DNA of 32,000 nt from Candidatus Minimicrobia sp. QA0096 (lineage in GTDB: Bacteria; Patescibacteriota; Saccharimonadia; Saccharimonadales; Saccharimonadaceae): contig NZ_OZ017288.1 in the NCBI RefSeq assembly GCF_963967315.1, forward strand, positions 1 through 32,000, in the 5' to 3' direction. The notes below the pieces were generated by a model. That model was not told the DNA's origin. It made no database searches and worked only from the letters and a program-made list of their open reading frames with translations. Shown here piece after piece: positions 6,908 through 32,000 of the stretch; the first letter of the stretch is position 1, and each line of letters starts with the position of its first letter. The translations under genes were made by a program, and so were the position numbers.

Positions 6908-8152
6908 ATGAAAATTGTCATTGCTGGTTTTGGTGTTGAAGGTCAATCTAATTTGCGGTATTTTCGAGAGAAATTTCCGGAAGCTGATTTTTTGGTGGCG
7001 GACGAGCGTGAAAAAGTAGATAATTTGTCGGAAAATGTAGCTTATCAGACGGGATTTTCGGGGCTGGAGAACGCGGATTTAATCGTTAGGTCGCCAAGTC
7101 TTCCGCCAAAAAAGATAAAGACTAGCGGTCGAATTTGGTCGGCGACAAATGAGTTTTTTGCCAATTGCCCAGCGACTATAATTGGCGTGACTGGCACAAA
7201 AGGCAAGGGGACGACGTGTAGCTTTATCTCGTCGATTTTGCGCGCGACAGGTAAAACCGTGCATTTGGTGGGGAATATTGGCGTGCCAGCTTTGGATATT
7301 TTGCCAAAAATTGAGAAAAATGACATTGTCGTTTACGAATTGTCCAGTTTTCAATTGTGGGATTTGCAGAAATCTCCGCACGTTGCCGTGGTGCTGATGA
7401 TTGAACCTGATCACTTGAATGTTCACGCTGATTTTAATGATTATTTGGCGGCAAAAGCAAATATTGCCAAGTTTCAAACCGCTGACGATTATGTTGTCTA
7501 TAATTCTCAAAATGAGTTTAGTTCGTCGATTGCAGATGCGAGTTCGGCGCAGAAAAAGGAATATCCATTTGTTCTCTCGGACGATATAACTTCTGCGATT
7601 CGCCTGCCGGGGAGGCATAATGTCGACAATGCGTGCGCGGCGATAGCGGCGGTGAAATCGATTTTGCCAAACGTGTCGGATGATGAGATAAAGAAGGGGC
7701 TTAGTGAGTTTACGGGGCTACCGCATCGATTGAAGTTTGTTGCTGAAAAATACGGCGTGAAATATTACGATGACAGCATTTCGACAACTCCGGGCAGTGC
7801 GATTGCGGCATTAAAAGCTTTTGCGGAGCCGAAAATTTTGATTTTGGGCGGCTCGGATAAAGGCGCGGATTATTCTGAATTAGCGAAAGAAATTGCCAGA
7901 CAAAACGTGCGATCGATAATTATCAATGGCGCTAACGCTGATGAAATTAGGGAAGTTTTAAGGGAAGAAAAAATTGATTGCGAAATTGTCCAATTAGATA
8001 TGGCGACAATGAAAGAAGTTGCCAAATCAGCCAAAAATAAAGCGCAATCTGGCGACGTGGTGATTCTTAGTCCGGCGGCCGCCAGCTTTGATATGTTTAA
8101 GAGCTATTCTGATCGTGGTGAGCAATTTGTCGCCGCCGTAGAAGAGCTTTAA
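6908..8152 (+). CDS. murD: UDP-N-acetylmuramoyl-L-alanine--D-glutamate ligase
   Basis: Mur ligase P-loop '[11 protein letters not shown]', then 'HNVDNACAA', 'LPHRLKFV', '[10 protein letters not shown]' and 'ILGGSDKG'. The N-terminal Rossmann segment '[11 protein letters not shown]' is typical of MurD. Confidence 0.9.
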
Positions 8153-8688
8153 TCTTGATAGACTTCTGGTTTTAAGACGCCGATGTATGGCAAGTTGCGA
8201 TATTGTTGGCGAAAATCCAGACCGTAGCCAACGACAAATTCATTCGGTGTATCGATGCCGACGTAATCGGCTTTTGCGTCAACTTCGCGCCGTGCTGGTT
8301 TGTCTAATAGCGAGCATATTTTTACCGACGCAGCATTTTTTGCGGCAAATAACTCTCTTAGCGCCTGGGCGGTTCGACCGCTGTCAATTATGTCCTCAAC
8401 TATCAACACATGCCTATCCGTTACGTCGGTATCCAAATCTTTGATAATTTTTACAGATCCAGAAGATTTTGTGTCGTCGCCGTAACTGGAAACCGCCATG
8501 AAATCAATTTCCATATAGCAATCCATCGCCTGTATCAAGTCGATCATAAACGGCGCCGCGCCGCGTAAAATACCCACGACAACAGGATTTTCATCGTGAT
8601 AATCCTCGGTCAATTTTTTCCCAAGTTTTTGAACTGCCGTTTTTATTTCTTCGTTCGTAAATAGAATTTTCTCAATGTCTTTATCCAT
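8149..8688 (-). CDS. hpt: Hypoxanthine-guanine phosphoribosyltransferase
   Basis: PRPP-binding motif '[13 protein letters not shown]', plus '[15 protein letters not shown]' and '[20 protein letters not shown]'. 179 aa. Confidence 0.9.
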
Positions 8689-14444: not shown

Positions 14445-15605
14445 ATGGAAAAACCAAAACCAACACAGAGCCACGAACAAGAACGACCAAAAACACTGGA
14501 AGACTATGTAGTTGCAACTTTTCATGCCGATGCTGACCCAGATATTACAACATCTCCGCTAACTGTTATTCGCAGTGGTCAAGACGGAAAAGGTGTCAGG
14601 CATGATGGGGGCTGGATTGCTGGCGATATGCTAAGTGTGTGTGATACTGATTCTGAGGAGGGTATTGGTTCGCTTGAGTTGTTTGTGAAAGTACATAAAC
14701 CGATTAAAGTTTATGGAGGGCATGTTTATGAAGAGCATGTTATTGCAACTAAGATTGTGTCATTGAAGAAACTCCAAAGTCGAGAAGCAAATAAAGGTTT
14801 TGACGAATCTTATATTCAGGATCTTTATGGAAAAACTACTGAGGAAATGCTTAAAGAAGGATCGGAGGCTGCTGAGCAAGTTTGGCGGCAGAAACATACG
14901 GCTAGTGATTGGAATAGTCTGTCGACTGCGGAAACGGGGCTAGATGAAAGTGATAGCCCAGAGCTAAATCGTTTTGATAAGAGAGTACTAGAACTGATGA
15001 AGCCTCTAGAGACTGACGTGGACGGAATGTCTTTTAGGGACGATTACACATCTGTGAAGTTGAAATTTGAGCATCTGCTTGATCCGAATTATGTGCCGTC
15101 AAATAATGTAGAGGACGCTGCCGTTAGAAACCCAAAAGGAGTTCCTGTATCTGAGAATAGCTTTAATGCTGCGAAAGAGGCTATTGATAATCTAGCTACG
15201 AATTCGTCGTTAATGCAAATAATTAATCCCGAGAGAGCGCTTGATTCTGAAGTGATCATAAATGGTATTAGAGCTAGTCACCTGACGCGTTGCCGCTTGT
15301 TTGAATATTTAACCTCCAGTCTTGACAGGCTGGCAGCCGTTAATCCAGGCGCTTTGGCAGACAGAGTTCTTCGTAACTCAGAGGATAATCTAAAAGCTCC
15401 TAATTATCTCGGGGGTGATTATTATGCGGGTAAAATGCGCAGTCGTGAATATACTGTAGTGCTGGCAATTGCTATGATGGATGGCTCATTTAATGTAGAC
15501 AGACAAGACAAAACGGTTACTCATTACAGGGGTGACAAGGAGAGAAGTGGTATGCATAGGGATTCTGCAAGGGCACTTCTCGAATATGTAAGAAATAATT
15601 ATTAA
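14445..15605 (+). CDS. Hypothetical soluble acidic protein, 386 aa, no recognisable domain
   Basis: Long ORF with its own promoter and terminator. No TM segment, signal peptide or known motif. A 100-nt hand count gave about 35% G+C, against about 47% in the neighbouring response regulator gene. Confidence 0.6.
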   Translation: MEKPKPTQSHEQERPKTLEDYVVATFHADADPDITTSPLTVIRSGQDGKGVRHDGGWIAGDMLSVCDTDSEEGIGSLELFVKVHKPIKVYGGHVYEEHVIATKIVSLKKLQSREANKGFDESYIQDLYGKTTEEMLKEGSEAAEQVWRQKHTASDWNSLSTAETGLDESDSPELNRFDKRVLELMKPLETDVDGMSFRDDYTSVKLKFEHLLDPNYVPSNNVEDAAVRNPKGVPVSENSFNAAKEAIDNLATNSSLMQIINPERALDSEVIINGIRASHLTRCRLFEYLTSSLDRLAAVNPGALADRVLRNSEDNLKAPNYLGGDYYAGKMRSREYTVVLAIAMMDGSFNVDRQDKTVTHYRGDKERSGMHRDSARALLEYVRNNY

Positions 15606-15995: not shown

Positions 15996-17189
15996 TCAAG
16001 CGGTTTTGGCTATATCTGCCGGTTTTAATACCAATATTTCTCTGGCAACAACTTGATCTTCACGGTAATATAAGAGGTTTTTATCGATAATTTGTTGATA
16101 TCCAAGTTTTTTAAGATTTTTTATCAGAGGCGAGTGAGTAAATTTACCTTCGTGATTTTGCCACGCTGGAACGGCTATGCAAAGCGTCGTGTATGGGCGG
16201 ATTTGCGAATGGATATTTTGCAGAAAATCGCTAATTATGTGATTACAATTTCCGACTACTTCGTGAAGTTTTTCTGGGCTAGGTGGTGCGGAAAACGGCT
16301 GACCTAAATATGTTTCGCAAACAATTCGAGAAATCCGTTTCTTCTGTTCATCTGTTAATTTTACAGAGGTGGCATCGGCCTGATGTGCTTGCCAGAAAGT
16401 GTTTGTCGAAAAAGTTTTTTCTACCCAGTTCATATTTTCGGTCGTGTAAGATATCATCTTATCACTCAAATCACTGCCGTAAGCATTCACGCCGATAAGC
16501 GCAGCTTCTTGTAATACCGTTCCTGTGCCACAAAACGGATCCCAGAGGTAATCGTTAGGTTTTGCGCCAGAAAGGTTAATCATAATTTGTGCAAGCTTGG
16601 GTGGAAGCATTCCCACGAAGGCATCGCGTTTTGGTCGCCCGCGGTCGCGCTGAGTATACGAATTGATATTTTGAGTGCCACGACTTTCAGCGATTATCAG
16701 ATCTCCGTACACGTTCTTAGCTATGATAATTTCAATTTTCGCCTCAGACCTGCCAAGTTTATTATTGTGAGAGGTCGCAGTGGACAGCGCGGCGGTTTTA
16801 TTAGGAATTAGACGCAAACTAACGCCAGATTTTTTCAGGTTGTTTTTTAAGATAATTCCGATTTTTTGGACGTTTCTCGGATCTGTTTTATTGCCATAAA
16901 AACTTATTCCAAGCGTTATTTTTTTCTGACTATTTGAAAGGCTTTTCGTGTATTTTTCAACAATAATTTTTGACGCCTGGAGTAGGGTATTGTGGTCCGA
17001 TTTTTGCGACTTTATCTTCGTTATGACTTGTCCGCACTTAATCGTTCCGCCGAGATTGTCAATTGAAAAATTGTCGCAATTAACCGTGGCGGCTTGGCTG
17101 GAGATTTTTTGGACATTTTTAGCACCGTAAACTGCCTCTAATTCAGCGATAGAGATTTCCGGTTGACGGCCAAGAATAGCTATAAACAT
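15996..17189 (-). CDS. Putative SAM-dependent RNA methyltransferase (UPF0020/Trm11-RlmL-like catalytic domain with a novel N-terminal region)
   Basis: 'RPKRDAFVGMLPPKLAQIMINLSG' followed by SAM motif I 'LWDPFCGTGTVLQEAALIG' and motif II 'AYGSDLS'. The expected (D/N)PP(Y/F) motif is replaced by 'IVCETYLGQPFS'. Confidence 0.5.
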   Translation of the reverse strand: MFIAILGRQPEISIAELEAVYGAKNVQKISSQAATVNCDNFSIDNLGGTIKCGQVITKIKSQKSDHNTLLQASKIIVEKYTKSLSNSQKKITLGISFYGNKTDPRNVQKIGIILKNNLKKSGVSLRLIPNKTAALSTATSHNNKLGRSEAKIEIIIAKNVYGDLIIAESRGTQNINSYTQRDRGRPKRDAFVGMLPPKLAQIMINLSGAKPNDYLWDPFCGTGTVLQEAALIGVNAYGSDLSDKMISYTTENMNWVEKTFSTNTFWQAHQADATSVKLTDEQKKRISRIVCETYLGQPFSAPPSPEKLHEVVGNCNHIISDFLQNIHSQIRPYTTLCIAVPAWQNHEGKFTHSPLIKNLKKLGYQQIIDKNLLYYREDQVVAREILVLKPADIAKTA

Positions 17190-19596: not shown

Positions 19597-20256
19597 ATGA
19601 TTACGAGAAATAGAAGTGAACGTGGCTCAGTTAATGGCTGGATGGTCGGCACAATCGGCTGTCTGATATTGTTTTTGATTGCTGGATCTTTGGCGATTTG
19701 GGCGTACATGCAATATTCCCGAGAAAAGAGCAGTGTTGATAGTAAAGTTGCGATTAAAGTTGCTGAGGGTAAGCGCGAGCAGGCTGAGTCTGATTGGAGG
19801 AAGTATTCAGACGCAGCTAAGAATCCACGTATTGAATTTGTTGGTCCTGCTGAATACGGTCGAGTGTCGTTTATGTATCCAAAAGATTGGAGTGTATATG
19901 TAGCGAATGACGGCAGCGACAGGGGTGATTATAAAGCTTATCTTCACCCTGTTTCAGTTCCTTCGACAACTAATAAAAATAGTCGATTTGCATTAAGGCT
20001 GGAGATTATCAACAAGAATATGGATACGGTGCTGAATGAGTATCAATCACGACTAAAGAAGGGTGAATTGACCTCAAGTAGTACTGAGTTTAATGGAATT
20101 TCAGCAACTCGGATTGACGGTACGTTTGAGAAAGAATTGCGCGGCTCTGTGGTTTTGATGAAAGTTCGCGATAAAACTATTCGTTTTTCAACCGACGCGG
20201 ATACGTTTAAGCCAGATTTCCAGACTATATTAAGCACTGTAAAAATCTCTGAATAG
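19597..20256 (+). CDS. Membrane-anchored hypothetical protein with an extracytoplasmic domain (possibly PsbP/DcrB-like)
   Basis: A single N-terminal TM segment 'WMVGTIGCLILFLIAGSLAIWAY'. The 'YPKDWSVY...' beta-rich ectodomain is only loosely reminiscent of PsbP/DUF1795 folds. Confidence 0.5.
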   Translation: MITRNRSERGSVNGWMVGTIGCLILFLIAGSLAIWAYMQYSREKSSVDSKVAIKVAEGKREQAESDWRKYSDAAKNPRIEFVGPAEYGRVSFMYPKDWSVYVANDGSDRGDYKAYLHPVSVPSTTNKNSRFALRLEIINKNMDTVLNEYQSRLKKGELTSSSTEFNGISATRIDGTFEKELRGSVVLMKVRDKTIRFSTDADTFKPDFQTILSTVKISE

Positions 20257-23465: not shown

Positions 23466-23502
23466 CGTGAAAAAAGCAAATTGGTTTTGAGGAGATAAAA
23501 GA

Positions 23503-24120
23503 TTGACAAAAAGTAGACCTGAGTTTGATAAAATCACATCGTTTGATGAGTTTAATCAATACTATTGGTATCGTGAAGAACTTTCACAGATATGCAGGTC
23601 GCTAGCATTAGAACATAGAGGTACAAAACAAGAACTTAATTATATTATTGAGCAGTACTTTAAGGGTAATTTAATTAAAAAATCATCAATAAAAAACGAA
23701 ACAAAGCAAGTTGAAAATATTACTCTATATATGCCATTACTTGAATGTGGGTTTTCCTTTAATACAAAATTTAGAGAATATTTCTCTGCCGTAACAGGTA
23801 TTGCACCTTTTAAATTTACTGCTGATATGGCTACTGCTTGGAGAAAAGTAAAAAGTGAAAATGATTTGAGTTTTACGATTCAAGATATGCTGAAAGTTTA
23901 TTATGGAAAATCGGATTATGCTAAATATGATAATTCGGTTTGTCAATGGAATCAATTTTTAAAGGATTTCTGTGCAGACGAAAATAGTCGCAACTATTCG
24001 AATAAGTTAAAAGTAGCTGCTATTCTTTGGAAAGAAGTTAGAGATTCAAGAAATGAAAAAATTTATTCAAAGAATCTTTTGACTGAATATGCAGGAAAAA
24101 TAAAAGAGTATCACAATTAG
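23503..24120 (+). CDS. Hypothetical protein with an N-terminal SAP/HeH-like motif, in an AT-rich gene
   Basis: 'YYWYREELSQICRSLALEHRGTKQELNYIIEQYF' looks like a SAP (helix-extended-helix) DNA-binding motif. TTG start with a GAGGAG SD 8 nt upstream. Two 100-nt hand counts gave about 25-30% G+C, against about 53% in a glyQS sample. Confidence 0.5.
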   Translation: MTKSRPEFDKITSFDEFNQYYWYREELSQICRSLALEHRGTKQELNYIIEQYFKGNLIKKSSIKNETKQVENITLYMPLLECGFSFNTKFREYFSAVTGIAPFKFTADMATAWRKVKSENDLSFTIQDMLKVYYGKSDYAKYDNSVCQWNQFLKDFCADENSRNYSNKLKVAAILWKEVRDSRNEKIYSKNLLTEYAGKIKEYHN

Positions 24121-24134
24121 GTAATTTAGGTAAT
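24117..24134. repeat. Perfect tandem 9-mer (TTAGGTAAT x2) spanning the stop codon of the SAP-like gene
   Basis: Copies at 24117-24125 and 24126-24134 are identical. Confidence 0.7.
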
Positions 24135-24172
24135 TCCTAACTTATTAACACCCAATGAGTAGTTAGTAAATG

Positions 24173-24198
24173 GATATTGGAAAGAGATATTGGAAAGA
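24173..24198. repeat. Perfect tandem 13-mer (GATATTGGAAAGA x2)
   Basis: Copies at 24173-24185 and 24186-24198 are identical. Each contains the 9-mer also found at 23457-23465. Confidence 0.7.
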
Positions 24199-24249
24199 CA
24201 GGGTATACTGTAGGTGAAATGGTATTAGCTATCTAGCGCTCGGGTGTAG

Positions 24250-24255
24250 TATAAT
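24250..24255 (+). promoter_or_regulatory. -10 box TATAAT, 7 nt upstream of ATG 24263
   Basis: TATAAT at 24250-24255. The track's ATG 24254 lies inside the box. Confidence 0.5.
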
Positions 24256-24262
24256 GACTTTC

Positions 24263-24754
24263 ATGACAAAAATCACCAACGGACGTATCATTACACAGAA
24301 TTTAGATGGAACGGACCATCTGGATTGTCTGTATCGCATTTCCATAAAGGCTCTGATTTATAATGATGCTGGGCAAATTTTGGTTGTTAAAGAGGATGGG
24401 CGGCAGCTTTGGGATCTTCCTGGTGGCGGAATGGATTATGGTGAAACTTTTGAGTCGGCTTTGAAGCGGGAATTGTATGAGGAGGTTGGCTATAAGGGTA
24501 ATCTTCGCTATCAGCTTTTTGATGCGTCGGACGAGATTTATGTTGAGCGAATTGATGCTAACCAAATTTGTTTTTCTTGTCGTGTGTGGACGGAAAACTT
24601 TGATTTTTCAGCGGGTGTTGATGCGGACGAAGTGATGTTTATGGATCCTGAAGAGTTGCGACTCCAAGAGAGCGAGTCGGGTGCACCGCTTCGATATAAA
24701 GTGCATTTGAAGTGGCAGAAATTGTGTGGCGCAAATAGTTTGCCGACAGAATAG
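24263..24754 (+). CDS. Nudix hydrolase
   Basis: Nudix box 'GGGMDYGETFESALKRELYEEVG' (Gx5Ex7REUxEExGU). Start moved from 24254 to 24263. Confidence 0.8.
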   Translation: MTKITNGRIITQNLDGTDHLDCLYRISIKALIYNDAGQILVVKEDGRQLWDLPGGGMDYGETFESALKRELYEEVGYKGNLRYQLFDASDEIYVERIDANQICFSCRVWTENFDFSAGVDADEVMFMDPEELRLQESESGAPLRYKVHLKWQKLCGANSLPTE

Positions 24755-24756
24755 TA

Positions 24757-24785
24757 TTGACTTTTTCCATAAAATAGTATAGAAT
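24757..24785 (+). promoter_or_regulatory. Near-consensus promoter: TTGACT, 17 nt, TAGAAT, 7 nt upstream of ATG 24793
   Basis: TTGACT at 24757-24762 and TAGAAT at 24780-24785. This is among the best -35/-10 combinations in the window. Confidence 0.6.
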
Positions 24786-24792
24786 ATCAGGC

Positions 24793-25410
24793 ATGGAAAA
24801 AAGTACAGGCGGCGTATCTTTTGGTATTAGATTTATTGACTCTGGTGATGGCTCGGAGAAGTATTCCTCTGTCGAAAGTCGGCGCTTGATTGGAATCTAT
24901 GATGGCGATTGGTCTTTGGAAGAAGATGGGACGGTGAATGCGTCCATGGTGTTTGCCAGAAGAGTGGGTGATATTCGTAGTCATGATAATTTAATAGAGA
25001 AGGTCCGCGGAATCGGTGAGAATATGGCGCGAGTGTCTATTTCAGAGTGTCTGGCGGTTGAAGATGAGGTGAAGGTAAGTGGTTGGCTATTAGCTGATCC
25101 TATGTCGCATAGTGGAATTTCTTTCTTGCGCAAAGTAATACCAACCGAGCTTGTTGTTCCTGATTCCATTGAAAATAACCCTGACGACGATCAGAAGCTA
25201 GAGATCGTCAGACTTGCCTTGCGTGTTGGAGCTGTGGCTTTGCATTGTGCAGGATTGTCATTAGAAGAGCTTAAGGAATCGCCTACTGAGAGTTTCTATC
25301 CGGATAAAGTGGATGAGCTTGTTTCTCGTTTCCATGGCAATGTGGATTTTGGTAGCAAGTGGAGAGAGTATAAGAAAATGGCTAAGGATTTAACGTATGA
25401 AGAAGGCTGA
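24793..25410 (+). CDS. Hypothetical soluble protein, 205 aa
   Basis: ORF behind a strong promoter with no recognisable motif. Its 3' end overlaps the next ORF by 14 nt. Confidence 0.55.
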   Translation: MEKSTGGVSFGIRFIDSGDGSEKYSSVESRRLIGIYDGDWSLEEDGTVNASMVFARRVGDIRSHDNLIEKVRGIGENMARVSISECLAVEDEVKVSGWLLADPMSHSGISFLRKVIPTELVVPDSIENNPDDDQKLEIVRLALRVGAVALHCAGLSLEELKESPTESFYPDKVDELVSRFHGNVDFGSKWREYKKMAKDLTYEEG

Positions 25411-25882
25411 TAATTACGGCGCCAGAGTTAAAATCGAGAATATTATGGAGGGTGAAGTCGACGAGGATTTGTTATTTGCTTTATTGACTAGATTAGTTGT
25501 TAAGGACGAGGTTCTCGATATGGATGTAATGTTGGCTAGTCGCTGTCGTGAGTATTCGGGACATATCATGTTAGCAGAGAAGCGCCTTCCTGGTCGGTCT
25601 ACGTTCATACAATCGCCATTTCAGTTTCCGTATGGTAAAACTGAGCTGCGAAGCTGGCGGGATGGGCGGGGTGTACATTCTGTTGGAGGGATAAGAGGAG
25701 GATTCAGGAAGAATGCTTATTTTTCTTCAGATAATGCGGAATATCTCATAAAGCGAGTGGCTGCCGTGGCTGTTGGGCTTTGCTTGGAAACGCCTTTACA
25801 AGAGATGGATTCTGTCAAGGAATTTTCAGCCGAGGAGCTGGCAGAAGCGTGGCCGAGGCTTAGATACGGAATTTACATTTAA
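25397..25882 (+). CDS. Hypothetical soluble protein, 161 aa
   Basis: Overlaps the upstream ORF (ATGAAGAAGGCTGA). Contains a Gly/Arg-rich patch 'GRGVHSVGGIRGGFRKN'. No recognisable family. Confidence 0.5.
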   Translation: MKKADNYGARVKIENIMEGEVDEDLLFALLTRLVVKDEVLDMDVMLASRCREYSGHIMLAEKRLPGRSTFIQSPFQFPYGKTELRSWRDGRGVHSVGGIRGGFRKNAYFSSDNAEYLIKRVAAVAVGLCLETPLQEMDSVKEFSAEELAEAWPRLRYGIYI

Positions 25883-25891
25883 TATCGCCAT

Positions 25892-25900
25892 TGCTATAAT
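25892..25900 (+). promoter_or_regulatory. Extended -10 TGcTATAAT, 6 nt upstream of ATG 25907
   Basis: TGcTATAAT at 25892-25900. Confidence 0.55.
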
Positions 25901-25906
25901 AACCAT

Positions 25907-26575
25907 ATGCATATTATTCTTGGTGGGACGAGTGGGCTTGGATTAGAAATGGCGAAGCAACTGCGAGAACGTGGCGAGCGTGTGCTGGTTCTGGGCAAGA
26001 CTCATAATCCGCAGAAACACGGAGAAGGTTTTCCACTGGATGTGTATTATTCAGATCAAGTGGAGGCGGCGTCGGCGCGAATTGAGCAGATTTTAAACGG
26101 CGATGATATTGATCAATTTGTGTGGGCGGCTGGATATGGCTGGCGCGGCAATTTTGAAGATCAGCCGAGTGTTCGCAGTATGGCGGAAGTTAATTTTTCA
26201 GGCGCGTTGCCGCTGGTCCAATGGGCTTGGCGTAAGATGTCAACGCAGAATCGTAAGTCTGTACTGACGATTATTGGGTCGACAAGTAGCGTTAAAGCGC
26301 GCTCGGATGAAGCTGTGTACGTTGCCACGAAGCACGCTCAAGCGGGTTTGGCGCGAAGTTTGGGGATGCAGGCAGATGAGCAAAAACTTCCAGTTAGAGT
26401 TGCACTATTTCTGCCCGGCGCTATGAAAACTCCGTTTTGGAATGGGCGCGATCTTCCAGCTGACTATATGTTTTTTAATGATCCAGCAAAAATTGCTACT
26501 CATATTATCAATGCGATTGATTGTCAGCAGCAGCCCTTTTTGGAATGGGCGTTGCCAAAAGGTACGTTGGTTTAG
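25907..26575 (+). CDS. Short-chain dehydrogenase/reductase (SDR) family oxidoreductase
   Basis: Cofactor motif 'ILGGTSGLGLEMA', the catalytic 'S...YVATKHA' (YxxxK) and 'PGAMKTPF'. 222 aa. Confidence 0.8.
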   Translation: MHIILGGTSGLGLEMAKQLRERGERVLVLGKTHNPQKHGEGFPLDVYYSDQVEAASARIEQILNGDDIDQFVWAAGYGWRGNFEDQPSVRSMAEVNFSGALPLVQWAWRKMSTQNRKSVLTIIGSTSSVKARSDEAVYVATKHAQAGLARSLGMQADEQKLPVRVALFLPGAMKTPFWNGRDLPADYMFFNDPAKIATHIINAIDCQQQPFLEWALPKGTLV

Positions 26576-26586
26576 GCTTTCCAAGG

Positions 26587-26595
26587 TGCTATAAT
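26587..26595 (+). promoter_or_regulatory. Extended -10 TGcTATAAT, 6 nt upstream of ATG 26602
   Basis: TGcTATAAT at 26587-26595. It lies just downstream of the SDR stop codon (26573-26575). Confidence 0.55.
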
Positions 26596-26601
26596 TCAAG
26601 C

Positions 26602-27618
26602 ATGACAGATAGTTCGAATAATGATCATTTTGGGGTAAAAGTTGTAGTTATTGGTGGCGGAACGGGAAGTTTCACGCTGCTTTCTGGATTGAAAAAATAT
26701 ACACACAGCATTACAGCGTTGGTCAATATGGTCGACGATGGCGGCTCAACTGGCGTGTTGCGCGATGAATTGGGCGTGTTGCCGGCGGGCGACGTCAGGC
26801 AATGTCTGGTGGCGCTAAGTACTTCGCCGAAAGTTCGCGATTTGTTCAATTACCGGTTCGGCGAGGGCAGTATGAAAGGTCACGCGTTTGGCAATTTGTT
26901 TATGGCAGCACTGGAAAAGATGACAGGAAGTTTTGCTGATGCGGTGGAATTGGCTAGCGAAGTTTTGGGTGTCAATGGCCGAGTTTATCCGATTACTCTG
27001 GACGATACAACGATGTCGATTAAGCTGAAAGACGGCACGGTTGTTGATGGTCAACACGCGGCTGAGTCGCTAAAGATTCCGCGCGGCGAGCGTCCGTGGC
27101 TAGAGCTTAAACCGCCAGCTACGATTAACCCGCGAGCCCGTCAAGCGATTTTGGATGCCGATTTGGTGGTGATTGCGCCGGGGCTTTTATATGGTAGTTT
27201 GGCGCCAGCGTTGTTGGTTCGAGGCGTTACTCGGGCGCTTGCTGAAACGAAGGCGAAGAAAGTCTATGTTTGCAATTTGGTTACCAAGCCGACGCAGACT
27301 GATGGATTTACCGTGGCGGATTTTGCGGATGAAATTGAGCGATTTTCAGGGGTGAATATGGATTATGTGCTTTACAATAATCATCGCCCGCCAGAGGAAT
27401 TGATAAAGAAATATGCTCACGACGGCGAATATTTGGTCGAGTGGGATAAGGAATTGCTGAAGAAAAAGCATTATTATGCGTCGGGCAAGCGTTTGATTGC
27501 TGATGACGTGTGGGTCAATACGAACTCCAACAGCGATCCGTTAGCGGCTCAGCGCAGCTTGATTCGTCACGATGCCGACAGAGTAGCGCGCGAATTGATG
27601 CGGATTTATTTTGCGTAG
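26602..27618 (+). CDS. yvcK: YvcK/CofD-like protein (UPF0052, gluconeogenesis factor family)
   Basis: 'VVVIGGGTGSFTLLSGLKKY...ITALVNMVDDGGSTGVLRDELGVLPAGDVRQCLVAL' and 'GHAFGNLFMAAL' are family hallmarks. ATG 26602 replaces the track start 26521, which would overlap the SDR gene. Confidence 0.85.
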   Translation: MTDSSNNDHFGVKVVVIGGGTGSFTLLSGLKKYTHSITALVNMVDDGGSTGVLRDELGVLPAGDVRQCLVALSTSPKVRDLFNYRFGEGSMKGHAFGNLFMAALEKMTGSFADAVELASEVLGVNGRVYPITLDDTTMSIKLKDGTVVDGQHAAESLKIPRGERPWLELKPPATINPRARQAILDADLVVIAPGLLYGSLAPALLVRGVTRALAETKAKKVYVCNLVTKPTQTDGFTVADFADEIERFSGVNMDYVLYNNHRPPEELIKKYAHDGEYLVEWDKELLKKKHYYASGKRLIADDVWVNTNSNSDPLAAQRSLIRHDADRVARELMRIYFA

Positions 27619-27639: not shown

Positions 27640-27668
27640 TTGCAAAAATTTATAGTTTGTGATATAAT
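27640..27668 (+). promoter_or_regulatory. Promoter: TTGCAA, 14 nt, TGaTATAAT (17 nt from -35 to the -10 hexamer)
   Basis: TTGCAA at 27640-27645 and TGaTATAAT at 27660-27668. ATG 27683 is 14 nt downstream, and the short leader has no SD. Confidence 0.55.
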
Positions 27669-27682
27669 TTACAAGCTATATT

Positions 27683-29356
27683 ATGGAAAGTAAAGAATTA
27701 TTAGACAATAACACCAATCTTCAAAATCAAGGCGAAGTTGATTTTTCTCTTGAAAGGAGAGAATTGGCCATGGGATTGGTGGAGACATTTAGCGGAGATC
27801 ACTTAACTCCGTCGCGTAAACTGGCTGCAGAGATTATTATCGGGATGCCGGAAGGTTTAAGTGATAGACGACGCATTGATTATATTACAAGGTCGCTAGA
27901 TGGCGTATCTGAAGAGATTAACAAGGATACTGTTATAGGTATAGTTGAGGACTATAAGGTCTTACAAGAGGCTTTTTCGTCGTACATGGAAGATATTGAT
28001 GAGGGCTCGCTAGCAGGAAAAGCGCTAAAGCTTAAGGACAATCAAACAATTCCTGACGATTTAGACATGGATGGTGATGATTATGGTAAGAGCCCGTGGG
28101 CTGAAAATCCGTCAATTCCAGCACCGCATCTTGATAACTTGATAAAGGTATTCTCAACAAAAGGCGAAGGAGCTGAAGGTGTAGGTCTAGAGACTGCGAT
28201 GATTGCTGGAGCTATAACCTTATCTAACTTAAAAATCGCCCCTTATCATAGCGCGTTCGCGTATAAATGTGCAGTGTTTGCTGAAAATTTCTTAATTCCA
28301 GTATGTAGTATTATTGGGCTAGACAACTTGGAATCTGAGCTAAAAGATGAAATTGGTGTTATGACGGGGCGTAATATTGGCGATGCTTTATATCGCAAAG
28401 ATGCCTTGAGCAGTGATATCGATTCGATCATGAATGAGGTGGACAGGGTTGTGTCGTTGCATTTTGGTAGCAGGTATTCGACTGATCCTACACGATTTGA
28501 TTTTGCTATGGGTAACTTTAATGGTGTGTTCTCTGAGCTGCTAGGGGAGTCAGATCTGAAACCTGCCGTAAATACCAATTCCTCGCATAGTACATTTTTT
28601 GGATCTGGTACTGTAAAAACCCCGAATGGGGCAGAATTGGAAGTAAGGGCTCGAGGTAAGGGCCGCGGCTCGTATTGTAAAAAATTACTACAGACTATAG
28701 GTTATTATGATAAACGTTCTCAGCCTCTGAAAGATTCGGGAGAATTCCATCCGATCGACTTATATGGTATGACGGTAATTTGTCAAGACAACGAGCAGCT
28801 AGCCGATGCCTATGCTGGTGCCGTGATTAAGGCTATTAACGGCGGTAAGATTACTCCATATCCAGCTCCAGGACGGAAAAGCGAATGTTTTGTTGTTAAG
28901 GGTTCTTCGGATTTTCAGGAGAAGATCCGCCAGAAAATTATCGATAAGATACCAGGCGTTGACATGAAAATGTTCAGTTTTAAGGATAGTAGTAGCGGAT
29001 TTACAGATGCGAAGATTACGGGATTCTATGCAACTGACGATGGAAGAATTCCGTATGCTCCGTTTGAGATGCAATTTTCTACGCCAGATGCTCGTCTGGT
29101 GGCTCGTACTGGTAAAAAGGCGGCACACTTTTTCTTTAAGCTGCAGAAAATTTACGGTGATTTGGTCAATATGAGTGATGAAACAGCAGAGAAGATAACT
29201 GATATTTGGCAGCGTAAGCAAGACTTCTTTACAAACTGTGCTGATGGAGAGAAGGAATCTCATTTAACAAAACAAAGTCGTGAGCGCGTTCGTAAATTTA
29301 AGAGAATGAACAGCACGTATCGCAAGATAGCCAGGCGAGCTATGATTAGTGTATAA
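27683..29356 (+). CDS. Divergent RelA/SpoT-homologue (RSH): degenerate HD-like region plus RelA_SpoT-type nucleotidyl/pyrophosphotransferase core, no TGS/ACT half
   Basis: By-eye alignment to the Rel N-terminal domain: 'VRARGKGRGSYCKKL' (RxKxxxSxxxK), 'IDLYGMTVIC' (DxxxxRxx), 'FKDSSSGFTDAKI' (FKDY..GYxSxH) and 'FEMQFSTPDARLVARTGKKAAHFFFK' (EIQIRT..MH..AE.G.AAHWxYK). Upstream, 'VFAENFLIPVCSIIGLDNLESELKDE' corresponds to 'ETxEIYAPLAHRLG..KWELEDL'. The HD dyad position reads 'VIGIVEDY'. Confidence 0.55.
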   Translation: MESKELLDNNTNLQNQGEVDFSLERRELAMGLVETFSGDHLTPSRKLAAEIIIGMPEGLSDRRRIDYITRSLDGVSEEINKDTVIGIVEDYKVLQEAFSSYMEDIDEGSLAGKALKLKDNQTIPDDLDMDGDDYGKSPWAENPSIPAPHLDNLIKVFSTKGEGAEGVGLETAMIAGAITLSNLKIAPYHSAFAYKCAVFAENFLIPVCSIIGLDNLESELKDEIGVMTGRNIGDALYRKDALSSDIDSIMNEVDRVVSLHFGSRYSTDPTRFDFAMGNFNGVFSELLGESDLKPAVNTNSSHSTFFGSGTVKTPNGAELEVRARGKGRGSYCKKLLQTIGYYDKRSQPLKDSGEFHPIDLYGMTVICQDNEQLADAYAGAVIKAINGGKITPYPAPGRKSECFVVKGSSDFQEKIRQKIIDKIPGVDMKMFSFKDSSSGFTDAKITGFYATDDGRIPYAPFEMQFSTPDARLVARTGKKAAHFFFKLQKIYGDLVNMSDETAEKITDIWQRKQDFFTNCADGEKESHLTKQSRERVRKFKRMNSTYRKIARRAMISV

Positions 29357-29364: not shown

Positions 29365-29790
29365 ATGACAACTTACTATACTGACGGCTCTGCTTCGCCG
29401 AATCCCGGTCCAGGTGGGTTTGCAGTTATTCGTGATCTTCAACCTTATATTTTGGGGTCGGAAGATGGCGATACTACTAATATTCGCATGGAGGGCAAAG
29501 CTCTAATTGCAGCATTGAAAGATGCTAATGGTGCGCCGTGCGTGATTTATTCTGATAGTGAATTTTGGATTAATGTGGTTACCAAGTGGGCGCCGGGCTG
29601 GGAAAAGCGCGGTTGGACGAAGAAGGGTGGCGAGATTAAAAATCTGGACATCGTGCGTGAACTGTACGAACTATATTCGAATTCTCAGGCGGATTTGCGT
29701 TGGGTGCGTGGTCATGAAGGCGATGAAGGGAATGAGCTGGCGGACGAATGGGCTAATCGAGCGCGTGAAGGTGAAAGATTGACAAAATAA
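29365..29790 (+). CDS. rnhA: Ribonuclease HI
   Basis: 'YTDGSASPNPGPGGFAVI', 'MEGKALIAALK', 'IYSDSEFWINVVTKWAPGWEKRGWTKKGGEIKNLDI' and 'WVRGHEGDEGNELADEWA' cover the DEDD catalytic positions. Confidence 0.88.
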   Translation: MTTYYTDGSASPNPGPGGFAVIRDLQPYILGSEDGDTTNIRMEGKALIAALKDANGAPCVIYSDSEFWINVVTKWAPGWEKRGWTKKGGEIKNLDIVRELYELYSNSQADLRWVRGHEGDEGNELADEWANRAREGERLTK

Positions 29791-29829: not shown

Positions 29830-30807
29830 ATGGAAGAAGTGAGGGAAACGACTGATATTTTTTTGTGGGCAAATCAAAACGACGCAAAGAAGAATGATTT
29901 ACAGATAGAGCTGTTCTTATTTAGCAAAAATTACACGCCGTATTTTATGCCGATAAAAGGAGATGTTGAGCAGCAACTCAGACCGCTGTTCTTGTTTGAT
30001 TATATCAATCAGGTCAATTTGGGTGCGGGTACTGGATTGAGCGTTCGCGATTATGAATTGAGCGAATCGGAAGATAATGTTCTGTTGCGGACTGACTTGG
30101 AAAAGGTTGGGCGAGCTGAAACGCTGATTCATTTGATTGAACATGAGCGTCATGACATCGTGGAGTTTTCGGAGACTGAGCACGAATTCAAGCGTATGAA
30201 GGGAATTGTGGCGCGATTTACCGATCCGAACAACCCTGACACGACATTCTACACGGTTAAGTTGATTCAGCAAGGTCAGACGCTAAAGAGTGCGTTGGCT
30301 TGGGAATTTTCTGATGGCAAATTTGGTTCATTTAATGCGGAAGTTGGTTTTAAGGTTCCAGATGATAATCAAGTTTTGATTGTTGGTAAAGATATTTTTG
30401 CGTTTAATCCTGGAAAATTTGAGCGAATGTTTGGCTATGAGTATAAAAAGCAGGTGATTGCTGATAAAAAAGTAGCGGAAATTGAGAAGGAATATAAGCT
30501 AAGTTTTCCGGAGGGAATGGATCTTAACGCGTTGGTGAAGGAGCGCAAAAAGACGATTAATAAATTGCAGAAATTGGAAATCGGCGCGGTTAAGCAGGAA
30601 GATGTTTTGGATTATGCTGATGAGATGCAATTGGAATTGATGAGCGATGATAATGGCGCGATTATTATCATGGACGGCAATGATTTGGATATGTTCGTAA
30701 ATCTCATTAACGAGGATTATATCGAGAGTAAAATCACGGGCAAGCGTTACGAAATTAAGTCGAAGAAGCTGCTCGGTGAGCCAGAGGGCGAACCGCCACG
30801 AGGCTAA
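29830..30807 (+). CDS. Hypothetical soluble protein, tentatively DUF4868 / KwaB-like
   Basis: 325 aa, acidic, no TM segment. 'IELFLFSKNYTPYFMPIKGDVEQQLRPLF', 'IFAFNPGKFERMFGYEYKK' and the C-terminal 'DLDMFVNLINEDYIESKITGKRYEIKSKK' resemble my recollection of DUF4868-family patterns. No search was run. The CDS itself is well supported; the family call is tentative. Confidence 0.4.
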   Translation: MEEVRETTDIFLWANQNDAKKNDLQIELFLFSKNYTPYFMPIKGDVEQQLRPLFLFDYINQVNLGAGTGLSVRDYELSESEDNVLLRTDLEKVGRAETLIHLIEHERHDIVEFSETEHEFKRMKGIVARFTDPNNPDTTFYTVKLIQQGQTLKSALAWEFSDGKFGSFNAEVGFKVPDDNQVLIVGKDIFAFNPGKFERMFGYEYKKQVIADKKVAEIEKEYKLSFPEGMDLNALVKERKKTINKLQKLEIGAVKQEDVLDYADEMQLELMSDDNGAIIIMDGNDLDMFVNLINEDYIESKITGKRYEIKSKKLLGEPEGEPPRG

Positions 30808-30808
30808 A

Positions 30809-32000
30809 ATGGATCAAGAATTAGCGTTGGCTATTCTGCTGAGCGGTCGGTCGGCGTTGCTGACTGGTGCGGCTGGAACGGGCAAAACTTACCTGTTGAA
30901 TACTTTTATTGCGCAGGCGCGAAAACGGGGTAAAAAGGTGTCGGTAACAGCGACAACTGGTCTGGCGGCGACACATCTTGGTGGCAATACGATTCACAGC
31001 TGGAGTGGCATTGGTGTGAATGATCGTTTGCCGAACAATTTTTTTGAACGATTGTCAAAAACGCGGCGTGATGTGATTTCTAAAACCGACGTGTTGATCA
31101 TTGACGAGATTTCAATGCTTCACGATTTTCGGCTGGATATGATTGATAAGGTTTTAAGAACCGTCAGGGAAAATGATCAGCCGTTTGGCGGTATTCAGTT
31201 GGTGATGAGTGGCGATTTTTTCCAATTGCCGCCAGTGAATCGTCCGAACGAGCAGGGCGGCGGATTTGTGGTTTATTCTGATGCTTGGCAAGAACTTCAG
31301 CCGGCGGTTTTATATTTGGAGCGACAATATCGTCAGAATGATGAACAGCTTTTGGAGATTTTAACAGCCTTAAGGACTGGCGATGTTAGGCGACGCCACG
31401 TCGAAGCGTTGCTAGCACGCACGGAAATTGAGCCGCCAGATGAAGATATTACGGAGTTGCATACCGTAAACGTCGACGTTGATGATATCAATATTCAAAA
31501 ATTGGCGGAATTGCCAGGAGAAGAGCGTTCGTATCAGCAGACGACGACAGGCTCGAAAATTTATGTAGAGAATCTGCAAAGGTCAGTTTTGGCTCCAGAA
31601 AATCTGGTAATTAAGCTGGGTGCGTTGGTGATGGCGGTTAAAAATTCGCCGCAAAAATTATATGCCAATGGTAGTATTGGAACGGTCGTGGATTTCGAGC
31701 CGTTGACGGAATATCCTGTTGTTGAGTTTCGAGATGGTCGTCGAGTGACGATGGTACCGGATGTTTGGGAATTGCGGGACGGAGAGCGTAAACGAGCGAG
31801 TATTTCTCAGGTTCCGCTGCGTTTGGCGTGGGCGATAACGGTTCACAAAAGTCAGGGAATGACGCTTGATGCGGCTAAGATTGACCTGAGAAAGGCGTTT
31901 GTTGAAGGTATGGGTTATGTAGCTTTGAGTCGCGTGCGAGATCTGGACAATTTATATCTATACGGAATTAACCGTAGGGCGCTGGAAGTTTCTCCTGACG
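30809..32000 (+). CDS. Pif1/RecD-like SF1 DNA helicase, 3' end beyond the window
   Basis: Absent from the ORF track because there is no stop codon within the window. My translation gives Walker A 'LLTGAAGTGKTYL', 'ATTGLAATHLGG.TIHS', Walker B 'VLIIDEISML', 'GIQLVMSGDFFQLPPV', 'LERQYRQ', 'AWAITVHKSQGMTLD' and 'GYVALSRV'. ATG 30809 is 1 nt after the upstream TAA, and a GAGG lies 5 nt before it. Confidence 0.85.
   Translation, partial: MDQELALAILLSGRSALLTGAAGTGKTYLLNTFIAQARKRGKKVSVTATTGLAATHLGGNTIHSWSGIGVNDRLPNNFFERLSKTRRDVISKTDVLIIDEISMLHDFRLDMIDKVLRTVRENDQPFGGIQLVMSGDFFQLPPVNRPNEQGGGFVVYSDAWQELQPAVLYLERQYRQNDEQLLEILTALRTGDVRRRHVEALLARTEIEPPDEDITELHTVNVDVDDINIQKLAELPGEERSYQQTTTGSKIYVENLQRSVLAPENLVIKLGALVMAVKNSPQKLYANGSIGTVVDFEPLTEYPVVEFRDGRRVTMVPDVWELRDGERKRASISQVPLRLAWAITVHKSQGMTLDAAKIDLRKAFVEGMGYVALSRVRDLDNLYLYGINRRALEVSPD

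Follow-up and report, generated by a model that had tools for sequence, protein, structure and literature searches.

What does the protein encoded by a 'hypothetical' gene of an ultra-small epibiont do? The question is raised by a 557-aa product encoded on the forward strand, at positions 27683 to 29356, of a 32,000-nt stretch of contig NZ_OZ017288.1 from Candidatus Minimicrobia sp. QA0096. We call this whole stretch, at its full length, the window, and the product the window protein. Saccharibacteria (TM7) live as obligate epibionts on a host bacterium, which supplies them with nucleotides and amino acids; their genomes measure about 0.7 Mb. In the oral genomes the gene is labelled 'hypothetical' and is missed by Pfam. 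We find that its product belongs to a known kind of enzyme, the RelA/SpoT homologue (RSH), of which it is an uncharacterised variant specific to its lineage. Its sequence leads us to favor, as the probable account, a housekeeping alarmone synthetase that derives from a long RSH; the TGS-ACT sensor is gone, as is the hydrolase site in the oral clade. If it is an alarmone synthetase, it offers a concrete handle on starvation sensing and growth control in these epibionts.

A 'hypothetical protein' listed for Ca. Minimicrobia sp. QA0096 matches the window protein with 100% identity, and one from Ca. Nanosynbacter sp. TM7-087 does so with about 95% identity; the two organisms are oral Saccharibacteria of the phylum Saccharimonadota. 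A first-pass annotation of this DNA had called the same 557-aa open reading frame (ORF), and the ORF listing bears it out. That annotation had also estimated the G+C content of the gene at about 39%, lower than in the housekeeping genes. The measured value is 41.9% as compared to 43.7% for the window, which is not atypical; the low-G+C argument fails, and a foreign origin of the gene was rejected.

Relation to RSH enzymes

A locus search with the single window protein returned close Nanosynbacter relatives only, and its matches to DksA_N and NamZ_C were dismissed as noise (E ~0.15). To look further afield, we scanned 1.84 billion cluster representatives exhaustively with phmmer, using the window protein as query. 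This returned 87 clusters, most of them 500-580 aa long, with no more than 20-30% identity to the query. Seventy-nine of the 87 make up the family alignment to which all column counts below refer. When the window protein was compared to a profile of 76 members from which its own clade had been excluded, it matched over residues 22-551 with a score of 242 bits (E = 1.4e-66 in a search space of 1.8e9). Judged by these alignments, it is a full-length and secure member of a Saccharibacterial family.

The family as a whole points to RSH enzymes. The Pfam RelA_SpoT profile (PF04607) was matched individually by 49 of the 79 members (best E = 7.9e-9), and two of them, P0135 and P0162, exceeded its gathering cut-off with matches that span profile positions 2-111 of 113. 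Pfam HD was matched by five members. Searched against all PDB sequences, the family profile returned almost only RSH enzymes, and the significant matches were Rel, RelA, FaRel2, and RelP. These included the Rel N-terminal domains 7oiw (9.4e-8) and 1vj7 (1.8e-6), ribosome-bound RelA (1.4e-5), and FaRel2 (4.5e-5). The match consists of three colinear segments, which correspond to the last HD helices, to Syn1-Syn2, and to Syn4. A profile restricted to the synthetase half found RSH enzymes only (FaRel2, 1.6e-7; Rel(Seq), 1.8e-4), with a weak match to RelP (E ~0.1). Similar results were obtained with hhalign, which aligned the family to residues 129-348 of Escherichia coli SpoT with 96.1% probability (E = 3.5e-9) and to residues 145-387 of E. 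coli RelA with 93.4% probability; both alignments take in the last HD helices and the entire synthetase domain. This profile evidence agrees with the core of the first-pass reading, a divergent RelA/SpoT homologue that combines a pseudo-hydrolase with a synthetase and has no C-terminal half.

The main texts of the published RSH classifications (Atkinson 2011; Jimmy 2020) do not mention Saccharibacteria, TM7, or the candidate phyla radiation (CPR). Starr et al. 2018 (PMC6031116) report that most Saccharibacteria have an annotated gene for the synthesis of (p)ppGpp (guanosine penta- or tetraphosphate), and our search of the literature on Saccharibacteria, Patescibacteria, or TM7x and alarmones found nothing beyond one sentence in that paper.

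The hydrolase and synthetase halves

The overall layout of the protein was taken from the family profile and from an AlphaFold2 model computed with the family alignment as input, which has a predicted local distance difference test score (pLDDT) of 89.6 and a predicted template modelling score (pTM) of 0.91. In the model, the N-terminal residues 1-20 are disordered, 21-285 form eleven helices, 286-495 a mixed alpha/beta domain, and 496-557 three to four C-terminal helices.

27683..29356, + strand: coding sequence of the 557-aa RSH homologue without C-terminal regulatory domains (pseudo-HD domain, synthetase domain, and helical tail), from the ORF call, the family profile, and the orthologues
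27743..28537, + strand: all-helical N-terminal pseudo-HD domain (aa 21-285), a putative degenerate derivative of the RSH HD hydrolase domain; eleven helices modelled with high pLDDT
28019..28162, + strand: clade-specific acidic loop (aa 113-160), probably flexible (pLDDT 63-77)
28538..29167, + strand: RelA_SpoT-type synthetase (SYNTH) domain (aa 286-495), from the PF04607 matches of family members, the SYNTH-only profile, and a low dN/dS ratio
29168..29353, + strand: basic, helical C-terminal tail (aa 496-557) in place of TGS-ACT; model helices at 499-517, 521-525, and 530-556

The order of the domains is that of the long RSH enzymes Rel, RelA, and SpoT (1VJ7 Rel(Seq), 7OIW, and 5IQR RelA), in which an HD-type helical domain is followed by a RelA_SpoT synthetase. 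The family and the long enzymes align colinearly from the 'LIKLADRLHNM' helix and the 'IYAPLA' helix onward, past Syn1, Syn2, and the G-loop to Syn4, and they share the catalytic Asp and Glu as well as the residues that bind ATP. In contrast to the long enzymes, which continue into TGS, helical, zinc-finger, and ACT domains, the window protein ends in a helical tail of about 60 residues. The first-pass annotation had reported the absence of this C-terminal half, and indeed Pfam found neither TGS nor ACT in the 79 family members or in the window protein itself; just 62 helical residues follow the synthetase domain, among which R511 is near-invariant. The acidic loop is confined to the clade of the window protein, P0121, and P0122.

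Within the modelled alpha/beta domain the elements follow one another as a beta strand (RxK), an alpha helix (SxxxK), a beta strand (DxxG), an alpha helix, an inserted beta-alpha-beta unit, a beta strand after the G-loop, a beta strand (ExQ), and an alpha helix. This predicted order fits an RSH synthetase. Foldseek returned no RSH structure from the PDB for two AlphaFold2 models (pLDDT ~89); as the sequence profiles do match Rel, RelA, and FaRel2 (E to 1e-7), we caution against reading this miss as an absent fold.

All parts of the protein are under purifying selection. Fourteen orthologous genes are intact, with ratios of nonsynonymous to synonymous substitution (dN/dS, or omega) of 0.11-0.27 against the window gene. 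By region, omega was estimated from the comparisons with substantial divergence (loci L012 and L010) and came to ~0.11 for the pseudo-HD domain, ~0.08 for the synthetase domain, ~0.06 for the insertion at residues 403-436, and 0.08-0.19 for the tail.

Two features of the N-terminal half have counterparts in the HD domain of the long enzymes.

27830..27856, + strand: counterpart of 'LLHDxxED', EIIIGMPEG (aa 50-58; H replaced by I52 and D by G54), placed by the columns of HD-retaining members and in agreement with the hmmsearch alignment
28184..28315, + strand: helices equivalent to RSH 'LIKLADRLHNMRT' and 'ETLEIYAPLAHRLG' (aa 168-211), placed by HMMER and hhalign alignments to 7oiw, 1vj7, SpoT, and RelA and by column counts

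The last helices of the pseudo-HD domain align to SpoT 129-185 and RelA 145-201, with a weak colinear match over SpoT 40-185. Here the window sequences 'GLETAMIAGAITLSNL' and 'AENFLIPVCSIIG' stand opposite the canonical 'ILIKLADRLHNMRTL' and 'ETLEIYAPLAHRLG'. By this alignment, the two helices are long-RSH sequence that is absent from small alarmone synthetases (SAS). The single-domain SAS of the RelP/RelQ type (6FGK and 6FGX) resemble the window protein in that they have no C-terminal regulatory domains and possess the same set of active-site residues, and they are ribosome-independent. However, they measure only about 200-240 residues (chains of 206-237), as compared to 557 aa with an HD-derived domain of 265 residues in the window protein. 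A size of about 25-29 kDa is given for SAS in the literature (PMC7591505).

Rel and SpoT possess an intact hydrolase site (the H, HD, ED, and D ligands), whereas the window protein does not. All four metal-ligand positions are lost, being occupied by R25, I52, G54, and I178; I178 stands at the D144 position, and N182 at the N148 position. The window protein is therefore a predicted pseudo-hydrolase, like RelA, in which the hydrolase site is also inactive. The missing HD dyad had been recognised in the first-pass annotation and the conclusion stands, although the dyad had been sought in the wrong place. 'GIVEDY' (86-91) had been read as the 'LHDVVEDT' site; the members with 'AALLHD' align to residues 50-58 instead, hhalign sets GIVEDY opposite SpoT 'VAELVEGVSKL', and GIVEDY was rejected as the dyad. 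The loss is not uniform across the family, since 28 of the 79 members keep the metal-ligand set, with 'EHPxRV', 'AALLHD', and, where D144 and N148 would be, E and N. Their stretch aligns to 'THPVAVACILA...AALLHDVIEDT' of SpoT (43-79; hhalign P 8e-5 to 3e-4). Even these 28 members read 'AALLHD(L/I)x(D/Q)R', so that the catalytic ED dyad is (D/Q)R. As the pseudo-HD domain of the window protein is still constrained (omega ~0.11), it presumably does something; by analogy with RelA, its role may be structural or allosteric.

The synthetase half contains the following elements.

28652..28684, + strand: Syn1, RxKxxxSxxxK (RGKGRGSYCKK, aa 324-334), with predicted adenine stacking and ATP-phosphate binding from SaRelP R78, K80, S84, and K88
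28757..28780, + strand: Syn2, DxxGxTxI (DLYGMTVI, aa 359-366), with D359 as predicted Mg ligand; roles from SaRelP D107 and R112
28862..28876, + strand: 'PAPGR' (aa 394-398), counterpart of the canonical 'PxPGRxKDYI', from the hhalign alignment to SpoT 'PRPGRVKDYI'
28889..28990, + strand: beta-alpha-beta insertion (aa 403-436) peculiar to the family, immediately ahead of the acceptor-binding G-loop; SpoT and RelA show a gap here in hhalign
28997..29032, + strand: G-loop and following strand (G439, F440 ... K444, T446), aligned to 'NGYQSxHT'
29066..29140, + strand: Syn4, ExQxxT...AAHxxxK (E462, Q464, T467, R471, R475, H482, K486), the best-scoring stretch aligned to Rel and RelA

In the structure of SaRelP with AMPCPP, adenine stacking is provided by R78 and R112, phosphate binding by K80, S84, and K88, Mg2+ coordination by D107 and E174, and the contact to the ribose by H190 (PMC5794853). 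Each of these ATP-site residues has a conserved counterpart in the family with the exception of R112. Five positions are invariant in the 79 sequences (R324, K326, D359, E462, and H482), among them the Mg-binding Asp (D359) and the catalytic Glu (E462) that had been described as retained; the Syn1, Syn2, and Syn4 strings noticed on first pass are thus no product of chance. The remaining columns are nearly as constant: S330 in 71/79 and K334 in 78/79 (Syn1), and Q464 in 74/79 and K486 in 74/79 (Syn4), with R471 and R475 invariant or nearly so. Position 364, which corresponds to the second stacking Arg, is Thr in the window protein (T364) and in 72/79 members, and Arg in none.

Most of the motifs proposed earlier are in place and conserved, namely RxKxxxSxxxK, D-x4-T-x-I, EMQFST (462-467), and AAH (480-482). 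'FKD' (433-435) is not one of them: it falls inside the family insertion and is not conserved, and the true counterpart of the canonical motif is 'PAPGR' (P396 in 59/79; R or K at 398 in 74/79). The insertion itself had been put at about 45 aa between the second and third motifs, which was roughly right. Some 35 extra residues lie between Syn2 and the G-loop, modelled as a strand (403-407), a helix (409-422), and a strand (431-435), and G407 is present in 78/79. Residue 440 is the position of the G-loop aromatic, which in RSH synthetases stacks on the base of the acceptor; Phe and Tyr occur there in 30/79 each (Phe in the window protein). K444 (78/79) stands in place of the G-loop His and is followed by an invariant T446 (79/79). 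The Arg of 'EIQIRT' is never Arg in the family. Compared to long RSH enzymes, the family has Thr for the Syn2 Arg, no EIQIRT Arg, Lys for the G-loop His, and the insertion ahead of the G-loop.

Gene setting, proposed function, and rival explanations

The gene lies in ordinary core chromosome. The window carries uppP, serS, hpf, secA, a Mur ligase gene, hpt, prfB, ftsEX, xseA, two-component genes, and genes for aminoacyl-tRNA synthetases. The immediate surroundings of the gene are as follows.

26521..27618, + strand: CofD/YvcK-family gene, upstream neighbor (Pfam CofD, 8.5e-84), with the same neighbor at locus L018
27640..27668, + strand: candidate sigma-70-type promoter (TTGCAA, 17 nt, TATAAT; extended -10 TG), which fits the consensus better than any other site in the region
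29365..29790, + strand: RNase HI gene, 8 nt downstream of the RSH gene (Pfam RNase_H, 5.8e-32)

The promoter TTGCAA-17-TATAAT had been proposed on first pass, and its conservation in orthologues supports it. The block is 100% identical across the Nanosynbacter orthologues, including L012, and its TGATATAAT element is also kept in L018, which belongs to a clade with only 47% identity. Since the block is identical although synonymous sites in L012 are saturated (synonymous divergence, dS, ~1.0), this footprinting evidence suggests that the promoter is real. Only 14 nt separate the end of the -10 element from the ATG (27640-27685), and the predicted mRNA leader is therefore at most 8 nt, that is, nearly leaderless. 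No Shine-Dalgarno sequence is visible upstream of the ATG in the same interval.

No terminator-like site was found between the RSH gene and rnhA, and the two genes are probably co-transcribed. Their junction is conserved, with a gap of 4 nt in L018. RNase HI, a KwaB-like protein, and a Pif1-type helicase directly follow the RSH gene, as the first-pass annotation had it, and the order yvcK/CofD, RSH, rnhA, KwaB-like, Pif1 recurs in L018 (47% identical), where it abuts mraZ and the division and cell wall (dcw) cluster. The KwaB-like gene (29830-30807) scores 48.7 bits against an NCBIfam cut-off of 200 and matches PADLOC KwaB at 5.9e-13. The helicase gene (30809-32000; Walker A GAAGTGKT) comes directly after it, where KwaA would be. 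As for the upstream neighbor, the listed TTG start of the CofD/YvcK ORF gives a 55-nt overlap with the preceding short-chain dehydrogenase gene, and Pfam matches the product only from residue 41 on (26521-26620); the true start is probably an internal Met (MTDSSNN...) about 27 codons downstream.

Distant family members have a different setting. Two lie in the order tmk, gene, rplJ, rplL (L016:8001-9542 and L023:4686-6338), a third adjoins rplJ-rplL (L019:8001-9482), and two lie between rpsJ (S10) and rplC (L3), inside the S10 operon (L022:6001-7557 and L024:6001-7590). The S10-L3 adjacency is normally tightly conserved, and a gene insertion there, in environmental Saccharimonadales, is unusual. 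Judging by the EF-Tu encoded on the L022 contig, whose nearest matches are in Ca. Saccharimonadales and Microsaccharimonas, the family seems to extend across Saccharibacteria. At each of the 22 family-bearing loci examined, the window included, there is one copy and no paralogue. A 522-aa ORF beside rpsJ in L024 was considered as a paralogue and rejected, as it fails the family profile.

The conserved residues suggest a reaction that depends on Mg2+ and moves the beta,gamma-pyrophosphate from ATP onto the 3'-OH group of a purine nucleotide. If the site works like that of SaRelP, D359 and E462 would hold Mg2+, K326, S330, and K334 would bind the ATP phosphates, R324 would hold the adenine, and H482 the ribose. 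The accepting nucleotide would most likely be GDP, GTP, or GMP, and the product (p)ppGpp or pGpp. Without a TGS/ACT region, the enzyme should not be activated by deacylated tRNA on the ribosome in the manner of RelA or Rel. Control would instead come from transcription and possibly also from the pseudo-HD domain, the insertion, or the tail. Since the hydrolase is dead, the product would have to be removed by another enzyme or by dilution. If this is true, the protein represents a natural long RSH that works without ribosome-sensing domains and with a dead hydrolase, which raises the questions of how it is activated and how its product is removed. In the environmental relatives, placement at rpsJ-rplC or rplJ-rplL suggests that expression is tied directly to ribosome synthesis.

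Two sets of observations weigh against a housekeeping alarmone synthetase. Searched alone, the window protein matches nothing in Pfam, NCBIfam, PADLOC, or the PDB at a threshold as loose as E <= 1; the RelA_SpoT profile search that had been proposed as a check was thus negative for the single sequence, which taken literally would count as the refutation named on first pass, and positive at the level of the family, where both the Pfam profile and the SpoT alignment match. In the active site, two Args that the characterised synthetases compared here conserve (the Syn2 stacking Arg and the EIQIRT Arg) are never present, the G-loop His is replaced by Lys, and the insertion abuts the acceptor site, so that donor or acceptor specificity may differ from that of (p)ppGpp synthesis. 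One possibility, which we regard as rather unlikely, is an RSH-type pyrophosphokinase with a non-guanine acceptor that acts as a chromosomal regulator rather than as the toxin of a toxin-antitoxin pair. The pocket changes and the conserved insertion beside the G-loop would suit it, as would the basic tail, and a place in ribosomal-protein operons would suit an activity directed at translation. The synthetase-only profile also matches FaRel2 (8PU3), a tRNA-modifying toxic SAS (toxSAS), better than Rel(Seq), and FaRel2 is its best PDB match. However, this advantage is limited to about 50 residues around Syn1 and Syn2, the whole-protein profile scores Rel and RelA best, the G-loop aromatic is kept, and the HD remnants are long-RSH rather than SAS architecture. 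The toxSAS enzymes (FaRel2, CapRel, and PhRel) are bicistronic with an antitoxin and associated with mobile elements or phages. In contrast, no antitoxin-like conserved small neighbor or small alarmone hydrolase was found in the five context types examined, no relatives of the family were found in phage, plasmid, and viral collections, and the protein has no PADLOC match. The neighbors vary by lineage and are housekeeping genes (yvcK/rnhA, tmk/rplJ, or rpsJ/rplC). A single-copy core gene in a ribosomal-operon context without a conserved partner is unlikely to encode a toxSAS-type toxin, and the toxSAS-like or tRNA-modifying toxin offered as an alternative on first pass is accordingly disfavored.

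Another possibility is that the gene forms a defense or stress module with the RNase HI, KwaB-like, and Pif1 genes, for example for an alarmone burst triggered by R-loops or phage. The 8-nt gap to rnhA without a terminator speaks for such a module, as does a five-gene order that is conserved in a clade only 47% identical. There is also a precedent for the coupling of RNase H with (p)ppGpp synthesis in RelZ (MS_RHII-RSD) of Mycobacterium smegmatis, in which RNase HII is fused to a small alarmone synthetase (PMC7591505). RelZ is, however, one polypeptide with RNase HII, whereas the window has two genes and RNase HI, in what resembles an operon. This linkage is found only in the oral clade; the distant members (tmk-rplJ and rpsJ-rplC) have no RNase H, KwaB, or Pif1 gene nearby, the block borders on the dcw genes of the core chromosome, and the KwaB-like protein falls far below its NCBIfam cut-off and has no KwaA partner. 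We therefore consider a defense module improbable. It could also be speculated that the protein is a catalytically silent pseudo-enzyme in which the RSH scaffold is kept for binding or regulation, such as nucleotide sensing or the binding of RNA or the ribosome. Points in its favor are the clearly dead hydrolase half, the loss of one adenine-stacking Arg and of the EIQIRT Arg, and the lack of a single-sequence profile match. On the other hand, D359, E462, K326, H482, and R324 are invariant and K334 nearly so among 79 sequences that share about 20-25% identity, a pattern typical of retained catalysis, and the synthetase half is the most constrained part of the protein. A silent scaffold is, in our estimation, highly improbable.

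A housekeeping alarmone synthetase derived from a long RSH thus remains the account that we favor. A bolder form of it is that the family is the only alarmone enzyme of Saccharibacteria, sensor-free and wired into ribosomal-protein operons, with a remodelled pocket that makes a non-canonical product (pGpp or (pp)pApp) or acts on an RNA 3' end. We think that this is unlikely; if true, the growth-control circuit of these epibionts would be mechanistically unlike the classical stringent response.

Other features of the window

Two further genes of the window encode products of kinds that are linked to (p)ppGpp in other bacteria, namely hibernation factors and purine phosphoribosyltransferases.

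2451-2822, + strand: ribosome hibernation factor (S30AE/HPF) gene
8149-8688, - strand: purine phosphoribosyltransferase (Pribosyltran) gene

Upstream of the CofD/YvcK gene, a stretch of low G+C (23503-26575; 33.6% at 23501-24500) separates it from an aminoacyl-tRNA synthetase gene. The stretch encodes a SAP_new25-domain protein, a NUDIX hydrolase, a short-chain dehydrogenase, and two overlapping ORFs without a family match (24793-25410 and 25397-25882). In L018 the same slot holds EcoRI-like methylase genes and a GmrSD/HNH gene. The slot looks like a hotspot for variable cargo.

Two ORFs on the + strand have no Pfam match at E <= 0.001, one at 14445-15605 (386 aa) and the other at 19597-20256 (219 aa). 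Nearly all genes of the window are on the + strand, and over most of 1-32000 the GC skew has strongly positive values, from +0.13 to +0.34. The skew drops to ~0.04-0.08 near 8-9 kb and 15-17 kb, which corresponds to two minus-strand genes, the phosphoribosyltransferase gene and a methyltransferase gene (15996-17189).

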